This document shows positions 15,026-47,644 of a stretch of 64,000 nucleotides of DNA, one piece after another. Origin of the DNA: Escherichia phage ECO07P2; sequence record OP172785; one strand, written 5' to 3'. Positions within the stretch are counted from its first letter, which is position 1. Each line of letters opens with the position of its first letter. Under the pieces are notes generated by a model. It searched no databases. It worked only from the letters and a program-made list of their open reading frames with translations, and was not told the origin of the DNA. A program made the position numbers and the translations under genes.

Positions 15026-15166
15026 TTACCATACTAGTGAATGTAGTGCCATAATAACATCAGAAATGAAAAGCACGACTTGAATTAATCCGAACATTAC
15101 TCCATAATATAGTGCTACCAATAAAGTAGCAAGGGCTACTGAGTAGCCCAAGATTTTCTTAATCAT
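15026..15166 (-). CDS. hypothetical small membrane protein (46 aa, 52.1-like)
   Basis: Hand-translated MIKKILGYSVALATLLVALYYGVMFGLIQVVLFISDVIMALHSLVW. Confidence 0.4.
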   Translation of the reverse strand: MIKKILGYSVALATLLVALYYGVMFGLIQVVLFISDVIMALHSLVW

Positions 15167-15317
15167 TAGTAGATAACAACACAAATGTTAAATATGCACA
15201 CATACCCTGAGCTAAAGCTTGTGAAAACACGCTGCTGGCATCAATATAGATAGTTAAAACACATGCTACTATCCAACAAATAAATGAAATAACTCCTAAT
15301 AATTTTGCAATATTCAT
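15159..15317 (-). CDS. ac: acriflavine-resistance membrane protein Ac (52 aa)
   Basis: Hand-translated MNIAKLLGVISFICWIVACVLTIYIDASSVF...; size and position of T4 ac between ndd/stp and 52. Confidence 0.6.
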   Translation of the reverse strand: MNIAKLLGVISFICWIVACVLTIYIDASSVFSQALAQGMCAYLTFVLLSTND

Positions 15318-23522: not shown

Positions 23523-23783
23523 TTATTTAAAGCGGATAGTCGAATCCTTGAAGAATAGACCAGAACATACGGTTCCTTCTACTTTCTGCCCGGTAGGTCC
23601 AATAGCACGAAATCCAGTATGTTGGAAATCATTTTCAGAGCAACCGAACCAATTATATCCAGTGATTTCAATATTAGTAAAACCACTTGAAGACAAAACT
23701 TTGGTTGCATTATCAGCATCAGTACATCCTACTAAAGATACTGCTAATACTAATGCCGCGATAGAACGATTAACATATTTCAT
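23523..23783 (-). CDS. putative lipoprotein (86 aa)
   Basis: MKYVNRSIAALVLAVSLVGC signal peptide with lipobox LVGC. Confidence 0.55.
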   Translation of the reverse strand: MKYVNRSIAALVLAVSLVGCTDADNATKVLSSSGFTNIEITGYNWFGCSENDFQHTGFRAIGPTGQKVEGTVCSGLFFKDSTIRFK

Positions 23784-37643: not shown

Positions 37644-37937
37644 TTATTCGCCTGTGATTTCGGTTACGATATTTTTATTATTAAAGTTTTTATCGCAATA
37701 CAGAACATAATTATACTGCATTACACCACCAGACTTAAGTTGTTTTTGCACTTCAGCTTTCATTTCAGGACGATCACGCTCAACGATATTCATAATATCG
37801 GCTTCAATCTGAGTTTCAACCTCAGTCTGATCTGCAGTCATAGACCACTCACACAAATCTTTGTCATAACCCGCCATAGCAGGCTGAGCAGCGCAAGAAG
37901 ATAAAGCAAAAATTGCAGCAAAGATAAATTTTTTCAT
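37644..37937 (-). CDS. sp: Spackle periplasmic protein Sp
   Basis: 97 aa with signal peptide MKKFIFAAIFALSSCAAQPAMA; T4 Sp is 97 aa at this position. Confidence 0.8.
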   Translation of the reverse strand: MKKFIFAAIFALSSCAAQPAMAGYDKDLCEWSMTADQTEVETQIEADIMNIVERDRPEMKAEVQKQLKSGGVMQYNYVLYCDKNFNNKNIVTEITGE

Positions 37938-42135: not shown

Positions 42136-42984
42136 TTAATCAACTGCTATTGGATGAATAGCATTAAACTTATGAAATGCTTCTGACTTTTCTTTGCGCG
42201 AAACACACATGCGAAGAACCTTTAATGGCTCGTCTTCTTCACCCAACGATTTTCGTTTTTCAATATTAGAAGTTTTCCAACGAGCTTGCTCTGGAAACTC
42301 TCTATTGATTTGCTCAAGCGCTCTATTATGTTTAGAATTACTACGAATTGAACTGCACCCGCCAGGAGCTTGTGCTTTTCCAGATACAACCAGATATTTG
42401 AACAAGGCCAAATGCGGATAACCTTGATTAATTAAATTGAGAAATGCATACATATCTTCGCACAAATCAATTTTTCCATACCCAATTTGTTCTGTCGTAA
42501 GTTTTCCAAGGTCATACCATGTATTCGTGAATCCATATGAATTTTCACGATAATTACCCCAAGATGAAGTAATTTTAAAAATTGGTAGGCGAGCATGGCC
42601 GTGATAATACCCGCAATCCATGGCATCTTCCACGTATTGAATCAATTCATAGAACTGTTCACGAGTTAATTGATTAATTTTATCTACACAGCGACGATCA
42701 TCTTTCTTTCGCATTGAACTCATACGAATAGTAGTATCATCATCAATCATCCAGATTCGTTGACCTGCATACATATCAGTAATTGCTTTACGAGTACCAG
42801 CAATTCCATTAACATCATCAGGAATAGTTATAATTTTAGCTCTAGACCCGTAAGCGTCATAATAAGCTTTTTCTTCGTGTTCACGTACTACAATATGAGG
42901 TTCATAATCAGTCGGAAACATATCAAGGGCAGAAACTGCCCCTACGCGTTGATAGCTTGGAATTACGAATTGAATCATTTCCAC
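42136..42984 (-). CDS. putative DNA glycosyltransferase, GT-A-like with DXD motif, at the beta-gt locus
   Basis: 282 aa; N-terminal QFVIPSYQR and WMIDDDT motif typical of GT-A folds; not the 351 aa T4 beta-gt. Confidence 0.6.
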   Translation of the reverse strand: MEMIQFVIPSYQRVGAVSALDMFPTDYEPHIVVREHEEKAYYDAYGSRAKIITIPDDVNGIAGTRKAITDMYAGQRIWMIDDDTTIRMSSMRKKDDRRCVDKINQLTREQFYELIQYVEDAMDCGYYHGHARLPIFKITSSWGNYRENSYGFTNTWYDLGKLTTEQIGYGKIDLCEDMYAFLNLINQGYPHLALFKYLVVSGKAQAPGGCSSIRSNSKHNRALEQINREFPEQARWKTSNIEKRKSLGEEDEPLKVLRMCVSRKEKSEAFHKFNAIHPIAVD

Positions 42985-43715
42985 TCACCGTTATAATCTT
43001 TTTTCGCAATATGAGTTTCGCCAGTTTTCCACCAATGGTCAACCAAATAAAAATGACGGGAATACACATGAAGGCTCCCGACATTCCATATAATGGAACC
43101 TGCTTTATACTGACGAGTTGAATCACCTGCATTCAAATCAGATACTAATTTATCTAGTACGTATTTTTGCCATGCATAATCATTACGGAATCCGAAGACC
43201 ACGTCATTTGAACGCATGTTAACCACTGCATTGACTTTCTTATCACGAATCAGGTACTGCACTGTATTCGTACACATGAAATCTGACATGCCATCTTTAT
43301 TGTAGTCAAACTGCATGGATGGACGAGTATAAATCATGATACCGCGGCGAGAATCAGGATTTTGACCAAGTTCAGCTAAACACATATCATACTGGGCATA
43401 GTTATCTTCTGACCAGATGGCCCAACCATAATTCGAGTTAATTTCGCCTTTAGAAGATGCTACCTGCTGCCAAATCTTCGGCGTTTCACCTGGAATATCT
43501 TTAACAAACAGACTTTGAGACTTATACCATTCAAGTTCACGCTGAATGTATTCATCATTAAGAGCGCCAAAAATAAAAGGTTCATCTGCTACAAATGATG
43601 CACCAATAATTTCAATAGTTTTAGCCCCGGTTTTATCAATTACGAAATCTTTTTCCTTTAATGCAAGACCCAAATCAAGACGGATTTCTTCAACTGTCAT
43701 ATAATCGTTAATCAT
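42975..43715 (-). CDS. 42: dCMP hydroxymethylase gp42
   Basis: 246 aa (T4 gp42 246 aa), thymidylate-synthase-like. Confidence 0.85.
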   Translation of the reverse strand: MINDYMTVEEIRLDLGLALKEKDFVIDKTGAKTIEIIGASFVADEPFIFGALNDEYIQRELEWYKSQSLFVKDIPGETPKIWQQVASSKGEINSNYGWAIWSEDNYAQYDMCLAELGQNPDSRRGIMIYTRPSMQFDYNKDGMSDFMCTNTVQYLIRDKKVNAVVNMRSNDVVFGFRNDYAWQKYVLDKLVSDLNAGDSTRQYKAGSIIWNVGSLHVYSRHFYLVDHWWKTGETHIAKKDYNGEWK

Positions 43716-43868
43716 TTAAACCTCAATTGATGCATTCATATTTAACTTGTAACAGTAATAAACTCCACCCTATAATAAGCGTTGGAATCATACAAGGAAC
43801 TGCTACGCTATAGTATATACTTATTATAATCATCAAGATTAAAAGCAATACTGCTAAAATTTTGCTTT

Positions 43869-44120
43869 TCATTCCTTCTCTCTGATGATAATTACTTGAT
43901 TTTGCTGTACAGATTTTTTAGTTTCACCTGCAATTGACCAAATAAATGTAATAAACCAACCAATGATTGACCAGTTAAACAGTAAAGATGTGAAAAAGAT
44001 TCCTACTGTCGATTTTGACCCACGCATCAAGGCGATGAACCATGGAAGCATGTATATAATAATAGCCAACACGCCTGAAACTAAAACCATAAAAATTGAA
44101 CCTGCTACTAAAGTTTCCAT
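43869..44120 (-). CDS. imm: superinfection immunity protein Imm
   Basis: 83 aa, two TM segments, T4 Imm length and position. Confidence 0.8.
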   Translation of the reverse strand: METLVAGSIFMVLVSGVLAIIIYMLPWFIALMRGSKSTVGIFFTSLLFNWSIIGWFITFIWSIAGETKKSVQQNQVIIIREKE

Positions 44121-44127
44121 GTTTTCC

Positions 44128-44508
44128 TCACTTAGTCAAATTTTTTACACATGAATTATAAGAATTCACTACATACTCCATCGGAGCATTTTTACCAGTA
44201 CGCCATTGGTAATTATTAGCCCAATTAGCCCAAAGCTCAGCGCAGTAGTTTTCAATTTTTTCTTCGCGTGTAATCACATCTGAATTACGATATGCTTGTG
44301 CAGATTCATCTGGACGAATAGCTTCGTCAAAATTCGCCTGCATTTGTTCTACTGTCTGTTTTGGAGCTTCTTTATAACACTTAACATTAGGATTATAAAA
44401 TTTGCTTGAACAGTTTACAATTTTTCCTACATCAGACTGATTTACTACCGGTCCTTGAGCTACACAACCAGTAAGACCCAATGCAATAACCAAAATAGCG
44501 ATTTTCAT
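44128..44508 (-). CDS. putative lipoprotein (126 aa)
   Basis: Signal peptide MKIAILVIALGLTGC with lipobox LTGC. Confidence 0.55.
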   Translation of the reverse strand: MKIAILVIALGLTGCVAQGPVVNQSDVGKIVNCSSKFYNPNVKCYKEAPKQTVEQMQANFDEAIRPDESAQAYRNSDVITREEKIENYCAELWANWANNYQWRTGKNAPMEYVVNSYNSCVKNLTK

Positions 44509-44520
44509 AATAATTTCCTC

Positions 44521-44772
44521 TTAAAACTTAACAAATAACTTTAAAGCATCTTCAGTTTTAATTCCTTTTCTTACACCCATAACAGAAATTGGCTGTGACT
44601 GAAATTTTCCTTTACCATTATAAATTTCCAATCCTGTCACCATTCCATTTTGTTCTATAATACCGTAAGTATTACCTTCATTTTCAAATTCTTTAACTTT
44701 AAAGAGTTTATTAGCTTTTTCTGCATTAACAACTTTTAAATTTTGAATAAAATTAGTTTGAATATTTTTCAT
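44521..44772 (-). CDS. hypothetical protein (83 aa)
   Basis: Start placed at MKNIQTNF downstream of the early promoter. Confidence 0.5.
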   Translation of the reverse strand: MKNIQTNFIQNLKVVNAEKANKLFKVKEFENEGNTYGIIEQNGMVTGLEIYNGKGKFQSQPISVMGVRKGIKTEDALKLFVKF

Positions 44773-44779
44773 TTTGTGT

Positions 44780-44830
44780 TCCTCCGTAGTTGATAGTTGT
44801 ATAGTACCATGGAAGAACAGGGATGTAAAC
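44780..44830 (-). promoter_or_regulatory. early promoter (PeSL-like, near-identical to 16580..16631)
   Basis: GTTTAC 44825-44830, TACTAT 44801-44806; about 50 nt nearly identical to the copy at 16570-16620, including RBS and start codon. Confidence 0.6.
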
Positions 44831-44918
44831 AGTTTTGTGAAAAAATTTTTAATGAATTCCAGAGGTCCAGAATCATCTATTTTTCCTAAGTATAGATTTA
44901 TATTACTTGTATGAAAAA

Positions 44919-44934
44919 GGGACCCGGAGGTCCC
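44919..44934 (-). terminator. hairpin after gene 43
   Basis: GGGACC-CGGA-GGTCCC. Confidence 0.45.
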
Positions 44935-44947
44935 CAGATTTATTCTA

Positions 44948-47644
44948 TCAGCCAAACAGGAAGTCTAACGAAGCTTTTTCCTCATAGTCCATACCTGCCG
45001 ATTCACACATACCCGCAAGCGGTTTAACAAACGATTTTTGGAACAAAGTTGAGTAGTCAATCCAAGCCAGTACATCAGAACGAATTTCTTTTGGAAGTTC
45101 CGTACCCGATGGCCAAGCAATGCACTTGTCACCAAATGGATTTCCCTCACGTAACGGAAGAACCATTACCTTATTTCCATCCAAAATTGGAGCTACACCT
45201 AAACCACTAACAGCTCGACGATAAGTTAGCACACCGCGAATGTGGAACGGGCATTTAAATCCTGGCCAACCTTTATCATCATATTTCGCTATATCATTCG
45301 CAGTTTTTACTTCAGCAATAACTTTATAGTCAAGTTGACGATATTCTTTCTCAAAGTTCTTGTAGTATTCTTGGACAGACTCTTCGCCTTCCTGAAGAAT
45401 GCGACGAATACTTTCTTCGAGAGCTTCTTGTACTGCTTTTGGTGTTGAACTCTGCTGAGTTTCCATACCCATGATTTTTAGATGTGGTTCAGCAAATCGC
45501 TTATCTTCCATATCATAAACGTTCAGAGCATAACGTTTTTTCGCTTTCCAAAATCCACCAACACCCTTTGAACCAAGTGGAGGGCAAGAAATAGCTTCAC
45601 GGTCCATATGCATCAGATGCTCGCGGTTATTCATATAATCACATAACTCACGATATGCAACATCAATCATAGGTTCCATCTTTTTCTTACCGAACTGATT
45701 CATGAATTCAACTAAATCGTTCTGCTCTTTGAATCGGTCAAGACCTACTTTTTCAATTACTTTATCTACACAAACATATACAGAATCAGTGTCACCCGCT
45801 GCGATGAAATCTTCACCATCAGTTCCACACACTTTATTTAGATATTCATTAATTTTACGAGCAATCCACTGAATACCAACTTGTCCAAAAATCGTGATAG
45901 CAGTAGCATTTCGCAAATCATAGTAGCGGAAATGAATATTACCAAGAGCACCATAAAGACTGTTGATAAGAATTTTACGGTTCAGCTGATTTGTGTTAGC
46001 AAGTGTAGCTGCTTTTTCACATTCTTCGATCAGACTATTAAGAACAGATTCAGTGTAATTCGATAATTCATTTAAGAAATCATCGCTGAACTTAACATAT
46101 CGTTCAACTTCTGGTTTAGTTGAGCAAGACCCTGCACCTTTCATAATAATCTTTTTAATAGCTTCGGCATTCATTTCTTCGGCGAACATTTTCTTTTTCC
46201 AATCTTTACGCTGGAAAAATACTTTAGCGATTTCCTTTGGAATGATACCTTCTTGATGCTTATCATACATCCATCCATTCGGAGAACAAGAATATTCATC
46301 ACTTGGCTTAGGAGCTGTTCCTGCGATATATTCATGAATTGGATGAACTTTAAACTGTCCACGAATAGTCTCAGGACTAATGTTAACCTGACGAATAATG
46401 CTAGGATACAGAGACGTCAAGTCAAAACTCATAATGTATCGACGAGCAATAGGTTTAGGTTCAAACACAAATGCACCTGGAAAACTTTGTTTAACGTGCG
46501 AACCTTGCTGAGGAATAACCTTATGTTCACTTTTCAACGAGTTAAAAATAATAGCATCCCAAGTTTTAATAGGACTCATTACACCAGAAAAAGGCATTTT
46601 AGCATAATAAGACATACTTAAAACTAGATCGATAAACCCACGAATTTTATCAATTGCTTGAACTGATTCTACGTCAATGATGTTATAACTAATGTATCGT
46701 TGATGATTAGTCTCACGAAGTTTATTAATAGGACCATCGTACGGTAATTTACCCTTTTTGGTTTCATGCTGAGCAACTGATTCCAAAGAGAATGATGGCA
46801 AATTAGTAAATGCGAACTTCTTGTACAAATCTAAATAATCAAGAATAGATACGCCATCAATAGAATAAATTTCTTTGCTACCGTACATATTTTGAATTAG
46901 TTTAGATTTTACTCGACCGATTGGAGAGAAGCGTTTCATACTGCGTTCGCCCAGAACCATTTTAACACGATTCATGATATACGGAACGTCAAATCCCTCA
47001 ATATTCCAACCGGTAAAAATAGCAGGTCGTTTCTGTTCCCAGAGATTAATATATTCCATGAGCATATCACGCTCATTATCAAATGGCATATAAATTACTC
47101 GGTCAAGAATTTCTTGAGGAACTTCATCACCACCTTCACAGTCAAGCTTAGCAGCTAACTTTGCATCCCATTTTGATACTGAACCGTACATTGAATTCAA
47201 CAAATCAAAGACGTAAAAACGGTCGTCAATTGAATCATAATGAGTGATAGCATCAATTTCATATTCTGCTTTCATTGGGTCAGGAAATTTATCGCCAGTA
47301 ACCTCAATGTCACAGTTAGCTACACGAACAAATTTTCGGTCATAAACAATTTCTGAACCATATGTATCACTGATATAAGCGAGTTTAAAATCGTTCATAC
47401 CGAGAGCTTCGAGACCGATGTCTTCCATTCGTTTCATCCAATCTCGGGCATCTTTCATTGATGGAAATTTTTGAGGAGCACAGTTTTTACCATAAATGTC
47501 TTTGTATTTTGACTCTTCCTTACAATGCCTAAACATAGTCGGAAGATATTCTACTTCGCGAGTACGTTCCTTTCCGTTTTCATCAATATAACGTTCAACA
47601 ATGCTATTTCCGACTGTTTCAATAGAGATATAAAATTCTTTCAT
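44948..47644 (-). CDS. 43: DNA polymerase gp43 (family B)
   Basis: 898 aa (T4 gp43 898 aa), exonuclease and polymerase motifs including GDTDS. Confidence 0.95.
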   Translation of the reverse strand: MKEFYISIETVGNSIVERYIDENGKERTREVEYLPTMFRHCKEESKYKDIYGKNCAPQKFPSMKDARDWMKRMEDIGLEALGMNDFKLAYISDTYGSEIVYDRKFVRVANCDIEVTGDKFPDPMKAEYEIDAITHYDSIDDRFYVFDLLNSMYGSVSKWDAKLAAKLDCEGGDEVPQEILDRVIYMPFDNERDMLMEYINLWEQKRPAIFTGWNIEGFDVPYIMNRVKMVLGERSMKRFSPIGRVKSKLIQNMYGSKEIYSIDGVSILDYLDLYKKFAFTNLPSFSLESVAQHETKKGKLPYDGPINKLRETNHQRYISYNIIDVESVQAIDKIRGFIDLVLSMSYYAKMPFSGVMSPIKTWDAIIFNSLKSEHKVIPQQGSHVKQSFPGAFVFEPKPIARRYIMSFDLTSLYPSIIRQVNISPETIRGQFKVHPIHEYIAGTAPKPSDEYSCSPNGWMYDKHQEGIIPKEIAKVFFQRKDWKKKMFAEEMNAEAIKKIIMKGAGSCSTKPEVERYVKFSDDFLNELSNYTESVLNSLIEECEKAATLANTNQLNRKILINSLYGALGNIHFRYYDLRNATAITIFGQVGIQWIARKINEYLNKVCGTDGEDFIAAGDTDSVYVCVDKVIEKVGLDRFKEQNDLVEFMNQFGKKKMEPMIDVAYRELCDYMNNREHLMHMDREAISCPPLGSKGVGGFWKAKKRYALNVYDMEDKRFAEPHLKIMGMETQQSSTPKAVQEALEESIRRILQEGEESVQEYYKNFEKEYRQLDYKVIAEVKTANDIAKYDDKGWPGFKCPFHIRGVLTYRRAVSGLGVAPILDGNKVMVLPLREGNPFGDKCIAWPSGTELPKEIRSDVLAWIDYSTLFQKSFVKPLAGMCESAGMDYEEKASLDFLFG

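Follow-up and report, generated by a model that had tools for sequence, protein, structure and literature searches.

In this work, we identified the open reading frame (ORF) at positions 44128-44508 of the Escherichia phage ECO07P2 DNA (OP172785; the whole stretch analysed, of 64,000 nucleotides, is hereafter referred to as the window) as imm.1, an ordinary T-even early gene already known from a decades-old T4 annotation, and we found that this gene stays beside imm, the gene for superinfection immunity, in all the related phage groups that we examined. As its most likely role we tentatively propose that of a periplasmic partner or functional associate of Imm, which would contribute to blocking the entry of superinfecting T-even genomes. 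The DNA-entry block exerted by Imm is mechanistically unexplained, and the linkage of imm.1 offers a partner hypothesis that can be tested in a model phage.

The source genome corresponds to a T-even phage of the genus Tequatrovirus, and positions 43700-45000 of the window are 96-97% identical to T2, RB27, RB51 and similar phages. The genes and signals of this region are the following, listed in the direction of transcription:

44948-47644, minus strand: gene 43, DNA polymerase.
44918-44935, minus strand: intrinsic terminator, a GC-rich hairpin followed by a T-run (terminator scan), conserved in T4.
44801-44829, minus strand: early promoter of the T4 sigma-70-like type, TTTACA-17-TACTAT with a TG extension (promoter scan), conserved with T4.
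44521-44772, minus strand: ORF of 83 aa with no signal peptide (phrog_18567, 7.4e-52).
44516-44520, minus strand: Shine-Dalgarno sequence of imm.1, GAGGA, 7 nt before the ATG and abutting the TAA of the 83-aa ORF (44521-44523).
44128-44508, minus strand: imm.1 coding sequence, ATG start, 126 codons (126 aa), precursor of a mature protein of ~112 aa (predicted periplasmic lipoprotein).
44121-44131, minus strand: Shine-Dalgarno sequence of imm, mRNA GTGAGGAAAAC followed by ATG, overlapping the TGA stop codon of imm.1 (44128-44130).
43869-44120, minus strand: imm, superinfection-immunity inner-membrane protein of 83 aa (Pfam PF14373 Imm_superinfect, 7.8e-16).
43723-43872, minus strand: 42.1, hydrophobic ORF of 49 aa (phrog_3610, 4.4e-25), annotated as 42.1 in RB51 and VR26.
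42975-43715, minus strand: gene 42, dCMP hydroxymethylase.

When the imm region of T4 was checked for conservation, as the initial annotation had proposed, the ORF was found there as imm.1 (T4p046, NP_049661, UniProt P18057) in an unchanged position, directly preceding imm in the transcript, in the interval between gene 43 and gene 42, and sharing the early promoter, with 124 of 125 residues identical to those of the window protein (99%). The T4 copy (NC_000866, 26636-27013) lies in the same place between genes 43 and imm, and the annotations of T2, RB51 and T4 all carry imm.1 at the corresponding position. The window and T4 proteins differ in the lipobox, which is LAGC in T4 and LTGC here (A13T), and the window protein has one extra C-terminal Lys. 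Consequently, the earlier impression that the ORF represents one gene more than T4 has does not hold, since T4 has it as imm.1 and the real extra gene is the 83-aa ORF. The initial annotation had also named, as an outcome that would speak against its exclusion proposal, a direct homologue of T4 imm.1 devoid of an exclusion phenotype; of this, the homology half is what the 99% identity and the syntenic position establish.

Profile searches support the same identity. The window protein matched Pfam DUF5481 (PF17578) with 239.2 bits against a cut-off of 27 (E 5.4e-72), covering the complete model (positions 1-103 of 103), and it also matched the phrog_1754 profile (5e-44, profile positions 2-148). 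No match to the Imm_superinfect domain (PF14373) was obtained for imm.1 in the Pfam scan, and the mature protein is hydrophilic (GRAVY -0.80), whereas two hydrophobic membrane segments would be expected of a member of the Imm family. With 656 phage records carrying an imm.1 of the T4/Mosigvirus type, a chance ORF is ruled out. Further, pairwise comparisons among T-even phages revealed 7-11 codons with synonymous and 0-4 with non-synonymous differences in imm.1, which points to purifying selection, and among all Tequatrovirus records the identity of the protein is 95% or higher. As for database labels, many imm.1 records are designated 'immunity protein', apparently copied from the gene name, for which we found no experimental basis, and the RefSeq label 'iduronate sulfatase' given to T4 imm.1 is spurious.

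Regarding gene expression, the terminator that follows gene 43 keeps the polymerase transcript apart from the imm.1-imm unit, and the early promoter, as judged by its location, is positioned to drive the 83-aa ORF, imm.1, imm and 42.1. Since the ribosome-binding site of imm overlaps the stop codon of imm.1, and the stop codon of imm overlaps the start of 42.1 (ATGA), imm.1, imm and 42.1 look translationally coupled within a single early transcription unit. The window Imm is 96% identical to T4 Imm, and Imm has a conserved C-terminal tail (QVIIIREKE). ORF 42.1 exists in T4 too, where it is unannotated; it is also found after imm in L011. In published omics data, T4 imm.1 falls in the early class at both the RNA and the protein level (PMC9697503, supplements). 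The length of 126 aa, the signal peptide, the LTGC lipobox and the place beside imm described in the initial annotation were all borne out from the sequence; its wording that the ORF lies directly downstream of imm was right as to adjacency (the gap is 7 nt) and wrong as to direction, given that imm.1 and imm share the minus strand and imm.1 is immediately upstream in the transcript.

Two segments of the imm.1 product are relevant for its localization and architecture:

44464-44508, minus strand: signal peptide and lipobox L-T-G-C, codons 1-15, with Cys15 as the predicted lipidation site.
44128-44268, minus strand: helical hairpin, codons 81-126 (helices 81-104 and 110-125), carrying C89 and C120 (AlphaFold2).

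Lipoboxes were recognized by the rule [LVI][ASTVI][GAS]C preceded by a positive n-region and a hydrophobic h-region, the Cys lying between residues 15 and 35. The N-terminus of Imm.1, MKIAILVIALGLTGC, fits this PROSITE PS51257-type rule with K2, an uncharged h-region, L-T-G-C and Cys15, and its match to Pfam LPAM_1 is weak (E = 0.44), which alone is not significant. From these features we infer export of the precursor and attachment of a lipid to Cys15. Given that the residue at +2 after Cys15 is Val and not Asp, there is no Lol-avoidance signal, and sorting of the lipoprotein to the outer membrane is predicted by the E. coli +2 rule. The same combination, a lipobox lacking Asp at +2, was present in all eight lipobox-bearing lineages, that is, the window type and seven others (Mosigvirus, P0007, P0008, Jiaodavirus, Gelderlandvirus, Dhakavirus and Gaprivervirus). 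Two uncultured lineages, P0005 and P0009, display a cleavable signal of the signal-peptidase-I type ending in AHA, with no lipid anchor; as they keep a plain signal peptide, the periplasmic location is conserved in the family and the lipid anchor is not.

The AlphaFold2 model of Imm.1, built from seven sequences, has an overall pLDDT of 66 and is confident only at residues 80-126 (88-95); an earlier model from three sequences had reached 58.6. In the modelled hairpin the invariant cysteines C89 and C120 are brought together, and they probably form a disulfide. The first ~35 residues of the mature protein, which bear the conserved motifs GxVVxxSxVGK and YNPxVKxY, were modelled at low confidence. 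In divergent members of the family (27-47% identity), the invariant positions in the window numbering are Y38, N39, P40, K43, Y45, V53, Y73, R74, S76, E82, C89 and C120. Overall, the mature protein of ~112 residues would comprise, in the periplasm, a flexible and conserved N-terminal stretch followed by a disulfide-stabilised hairpin. Foldseek searches with this model gave no match in the PDB at E < 3, and only members of its own family in BFVD. An assignment of function from the fold was rejected, as the model is confident in the C-terminal hairpin only and has no informative structural neighbours; for these same reasons, no binding surface can be argued for Imm.1.

The association between imm.1 and imm extends well beyond the T4-like phages. 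The order 43>imm.1>imm>42 is shared by T4, T2 and RB51 and by the metagenomic lineages L008, L009 and L012. In Mosigvirus (RB69-like phages), the pair has been relocated to another genome region, where both genes remain neighbours beside spackle, between genes 41 and 61 (dmd>x>imm.1>imm>sp), and in L011 the order is frd.3-like>imm.1>imm>42.1. A lipoprotein of 147-148 aa occupies the equivalent place in Jiaodavirus (Klebsiella phages) and Gelderlandvirus (Salmonella phages), as 43>lipoprotein>imm>42, and in Dhakavirus and Gaprivervirus the order is reversed, as 43>imm>(42.1)>lipoprotein, the latter being 166-167 aa long. The longer proteins of these four genera are homologues of Imm.1, since all four gave full-length matches to phrog_1754 (E 2e-15 to 2e-52); when they were compared with DUF5481 by hhalign, only the N-terminal 30-42 columns were aligned, which is weak alone. 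Therefore, imm.1 homologues adjoin imm in six genera of Tevenvirinae and in several uncultured lineages, across at least three rearrangements.

Record counts agree with this linkage. We found 657 records of imm at least 60% identical to that of the window, compared with 656 records of T4/Mosigvirus-type imm.1; adding 148 of the Jiaodavirus type and 132 of the Dhakavirus, Gaprivervirus and Gelderlandvirus types, a phrog_1754 member is present in ~936 of 1010 imm-carrying phage records (~93%). The strict DUF5481 family is very small, with only 6 clusters retrieved in a profile search over 1.84 billion representative proteins; word-index sequence searches for relatives returned 3, 3 and 8 clusters, and an IMG/VR search returned 7 loci, all belonging to known types. 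A sequence search of the PDB gave no match to imm.1, and the NCBIfam and PADLOC searches gave noise only. No neighbouring lipoprotein was found for the Imm-domain genes of unrelated small siphoviruses. An anecdotal exception is Salmonella phage Akira, in which a secreted protein of 97 aa, lacking a lipobox, is encoded upstream of an Imm-domain gene.

The imm.1-imm cassette is hypervariable inside a conserved backbone constituted by genes 42 and 43. Between lineages, the imm.1 products are 27-47% identical and those of imm 38-82%, whereas gene 43 retains 83-89% and gene 42 80-93% identity. The clearest case is L009, whose gene 42 is 92.7% identical to that of the window, compared with 38% for imm and 40% for imm.1. 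Fast divergence between types together with conservation within types is the pattern one would expect of genes engaged in phage-phage competition.

Taken together, the adjacency across six genera, the co-transcription, the apparent coupling and the joint divergence of both genes support, at the sequence level, a functional tie between imm.1 and imm; being kept beside imm while rapidly diverging jointly with it, imm.1 is a concrete candidate for a partner of Imm. In the mechanism that we propose, Imm, in the inner membrane, would have Imm.1 as its periplasmic partner, and both would act together in the first minutes of infection, so that a superinfecting T-even phage could not bring its tail-tube tip or its DNA across the periplasm and the inner membrane. 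To this end, Imm.1 might attach to some conserved portion of the injection apparatus of the incoming phage, or it might contact Imm on its periplasmic face. This would fit a review in which Imm alone is described as insufficient for full immunity, needing another membrane protein (PMC9952470). That Imm.1 is this long-postulated second component of Imm, that with Imm, and perhaps 42.1, it would constitute an envelope-spanning block, and that the cassette would set which T-even types are excluded, is an extension of the proposal that we regard as doubtful. If the partner role is correct, a classic phenomenon would be explained, and this could also account for exclusion being type-specific among T-even lineages, as when RB69 excludes T4.

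Several considerations temper the proposed partnership with Imm. Lu and Henning are said to have reported in 1989 that cloned imm alone gives substantial immunity, in which case imm.1 would be at most an enhancer. The adjacency of both genes is partly inherited synteny, genes in an early operon need not share a function, and the small membrane ORF 42.1 is as well placed as imm.1 to be the partner of Imm. No function or exclusion phenotype for imm.1 was found in the literature, and in a transcriptome-wide knock-down screen of T4 the gene was listed as of unknown function and 'Not Fit', with no fitness effect (PMC11879866, supplement). This indicates that imm.1 is dispensable in the laboratory; a single-phage assay would not reveal exclusion, nor does its result support it.

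These observations must be weighed against other readings, among which it is possible, if somewhat doubtful, that Imm.1 is an accessory envelope protein whose job is unrelated to Imm, both genes being neighbours as small early genes that share a variable slot. Such a protein might make the envelope more resistant to lysis from without, participate in lysis-inhibition sensing, or counter a host envelope-based defence. The dispensability of imm.1 and its having no known phenotype are compatible with such a job, T-even early units do mix unrelated small genes (the inserted 83-aa ORF being an example), the two lineages devoid of a lipid anchor indicate that a fixed outer-membrane position is unnecessary, and imm.1 resembles no known exclusion protein in sequence or fold. 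However, a mere sharing of a slot fits poorly with a pair that survives at least three independent rearrangements, including the relocation in Mosigvirus and the order reversal in Dhakavirus and Gaprivervirus, and with the ~93% of imm-carrying records that have a phrog_1754 member; likewise, the translational-coupling signals bind imm.1 closely to imm, and both genes diverge jointly and far faster than their flanks. The strictness of this linkage also bears on a distinct proposal, which we consider unlikely, namely that Imm.1 is an exclusion factor independent of Imm that binds a conserved tail-tip component (gp27, gp5, gp5.4 or the gp29 tape measure), in the manner of T4 Spackle (Sp), which inhibits the tail lysozyme gp5 in the periplasm. 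Spackle is a small, early, secreted, helical protein with cysteines that resides in the periplasm, as predicted for Imm.1, and therefore compartment, timing and a small disulfide-containing helical character are alike; furthermore, Mosigvirus groups imm.1 with imm and sp in one block, the rapid divergence of imm.1 would fit an arms race against a phage target, and its conservation despite differing receptors points to a target common to all T-even phages. Nevertheless, a homology to Spackle was rejected, since the hhalign comparison (probability 27%) covers 16 columns of the signal peptide only; a target and a phenotype have been demonstrated for Spackle but not for Imm.1, the gene to which imm.1 is strictly linked is imm and not sp, and, to our knowledge, classical genetics turned up no exclusion loci other than imm and sp.

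A third reading, suggested in the initial annotation, is that the lipoprotein blocks a receptor, as do the outer-membrane lipoproteins Llp (T5) and Cor (T1 and phi80), whose target is the receptor FhuA; by binding the receptor of its own phage from the periplasmic side, Imm.1 would prevent later adsorption or the loss of progeny on debris. We consider this highly improbable. The resemblance resides in the products being small early phage lipoproteins, for which a location in the inner leaflet of the outer membrane is predicted, and Llp has been described in a published account (PMC9586334). Nonetheless, the T2 and T4 proteins are within 1-2 residues of that of the window and T6 appears among the close Tequatrovirus matches (the direct protein comparison being limited to T2 and T4). 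The receptors of these phages differ, being FadL/OmpF for T2, OmpC/LPS for T4 and Tsx for T6, and a protein that binds one specific receptor should change when the receptor changes, whereas Imm.1 is nearly constant throughout Tequatrovirus and, by the listing of T6, across the three specificities; for this reason receptor masking is unlikely. In addition, superinfecting T-even phages do adsorb and eject, and their DNA ends in the periplasm (summarised in PMC10002423), so that exclusion does not occur at adsorption; the family members of P0005 and P0009 are not lipid-anchored, and no similarity of Imm.1 to Llp or Cor-type proteins was found, as the Pfam scan at E <= 1 returned DUF5481 and noise and the Foldseek search against the PDB was empty at E < 3.

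Regarding the partnership of Imm.1 with Imm, the arrangement of both genes also recalls the two-component spanins (Rz/Rz1), in which adjacent genes likewise encode an inner-membrane protein, here Imm, and an outer-membrane lipoprotein, as predicted for Imm.1. By analogy, the Imm and Imm.1 pair could in principle bridge the periplasm in a spanin-like manner. However, spanins are late genes and imm.1-imm are early, there is no sequence similarity between them, and Imm does not have a long periplasmic domain.

Finally, alignment with T4 showed that the true additional gene of the window resides in a clean insertion of ~265 nt that separates imm.1 from the shared early promoter and carries the 83-aa ORF and its own ribosome-binding site; in T4 imm.1 directly follows the early promoter, whereas in the window the 83-aa ORF intervenes. 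A longer version of this ORF, of 144 aa and starting with TTG (44521-44955), was rejected because both the promoter and the terminator would fall inside it. The 83-aa ORF is present in only 37 phage records, and it is annotated as T2_046 in T2 and as RB51ncORF048c in RB51.

The divergence of imm.1 and imm, which encode a predicted lipoprotein and the inner-membrane superinfection-immunity protein, was assessed by comparing window positions 43869-44508 with four metagenomic lineages (L008, L009, L011 and L012) and a further lineage (L005). Between lineages in which the flanking genes 42 and 43 (dCMP hydroxymethylase and DNA polymerase) are 80-93% identical, identity falls to 27-47% for imm.1 and to 38-82% for imm, and the variation in Imm lies in its membrane segments, with a nearly constant C-terminal tail (QVIIIREKE). 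imm.1 and imm together thus form a hypervariable cassette. Two ORFs adjoin the pair in the window, and one of them is also located in T4:

Window 43723-43872 (-): 42.1, 49-aa hydrophobic ORF, phrog_3610; its start and the imm stop share nucleotides (ATGA)
T4 locus L003 4228-4377 (-): 42.1, an ORF unannotated in the T4 reference record
Window 44521-44772 (-): 83-aa ORF, phrog_18567

The position of 42.1 after imm is conserved in RB51, in Gaprivervirus and in L011, a metagenomic contig, and its product is another candidate for a membrane partner of Imm. On the other side, the 83-aa ORF represents the real indel relative to T4, being carried by a clean insertion of ~265 nt that separates imm.1 from the conserved early promoter. 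Neither a signal peptide nor a Pfam match was found for it, and matches were obtained in only 37 phage records, 30 of them from Tequatrovirus (including T2, RB27, RB51 and RB68); the other seven, among them Dhakavirus-group phages, match at 53-54% identity. The name "tail tape measure protein", given to this ORF in one T2 record, is clearly wrong.

Two names attached to imm.1 are database artefacts, no supporting evidence being found for "iduronate sulfatase", the RefSeq name of T4 imm.1 (NC_000866, L003 4637-5014), or for "immunity protein", used in many records. Protein P0006, which joins a DNA polymerase I fragment (PF00476) to the C-terminal 28 residues of imm.1 from a Mosigvirus (RB69-like phage), has the appearance of an assembly chimera.

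When the 64-kb window was scanned for the lipobox pattern, matches were obtained at five loci:

44128-44508 (-): imm.1
37644-37937 (-): Spackle-like ORF, 97 aa, L-S-S-C; MKKFIFAAIFALSSC/AAQPAMAG...
23523-23783 (-): predicted lipoprotein, 86 aa, phrog_902, without a Pfam match; MKYVNRSIAALVLAVSLVGC...
15159-15317: membrane-like ORF, 52 aa
8995-9354: low-complexity ORF, implausible

Spackle has been described as soluble and periplasmic, in contrast to the lipobox fit of the Spackle-like ORF, where Cys15 would be the putative lipidation site.

In Salmonella phage Akira, an unrelated small siphovirus, the following gene lies directly upstream of an Imm-domain gene:

L020 1142-1435 (+): 97-aa product, phrog_2315; cleavable signal peptide

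It displays neither a lipobox nor similarity to imm.1, and may represent an independent instance of Imm being paired with a secreted protein, on the strength of a single anecdotal case.

The DNA glucosylation genes of the window include the following:

42136-42984 (-): 282-aa glycosyltransferase, Pfam TAGT (1.2e-09)

This gene occupies the locus of beta-gt in T4, and its counterparts in T2 and RB51 carry either the annotation beta-glucosyl-HMC-alpha-glucosyltransferase or a note of similarity to that enzyme; the homing-endonuclease gene segA, located between uvsX and beta-gt in T4, is absent from the window. The replacement of beta-gt, the T2/RB51 equivalents and the absence of segA indicate that the window is T2/T6-like in its DNA glucosylation genes.
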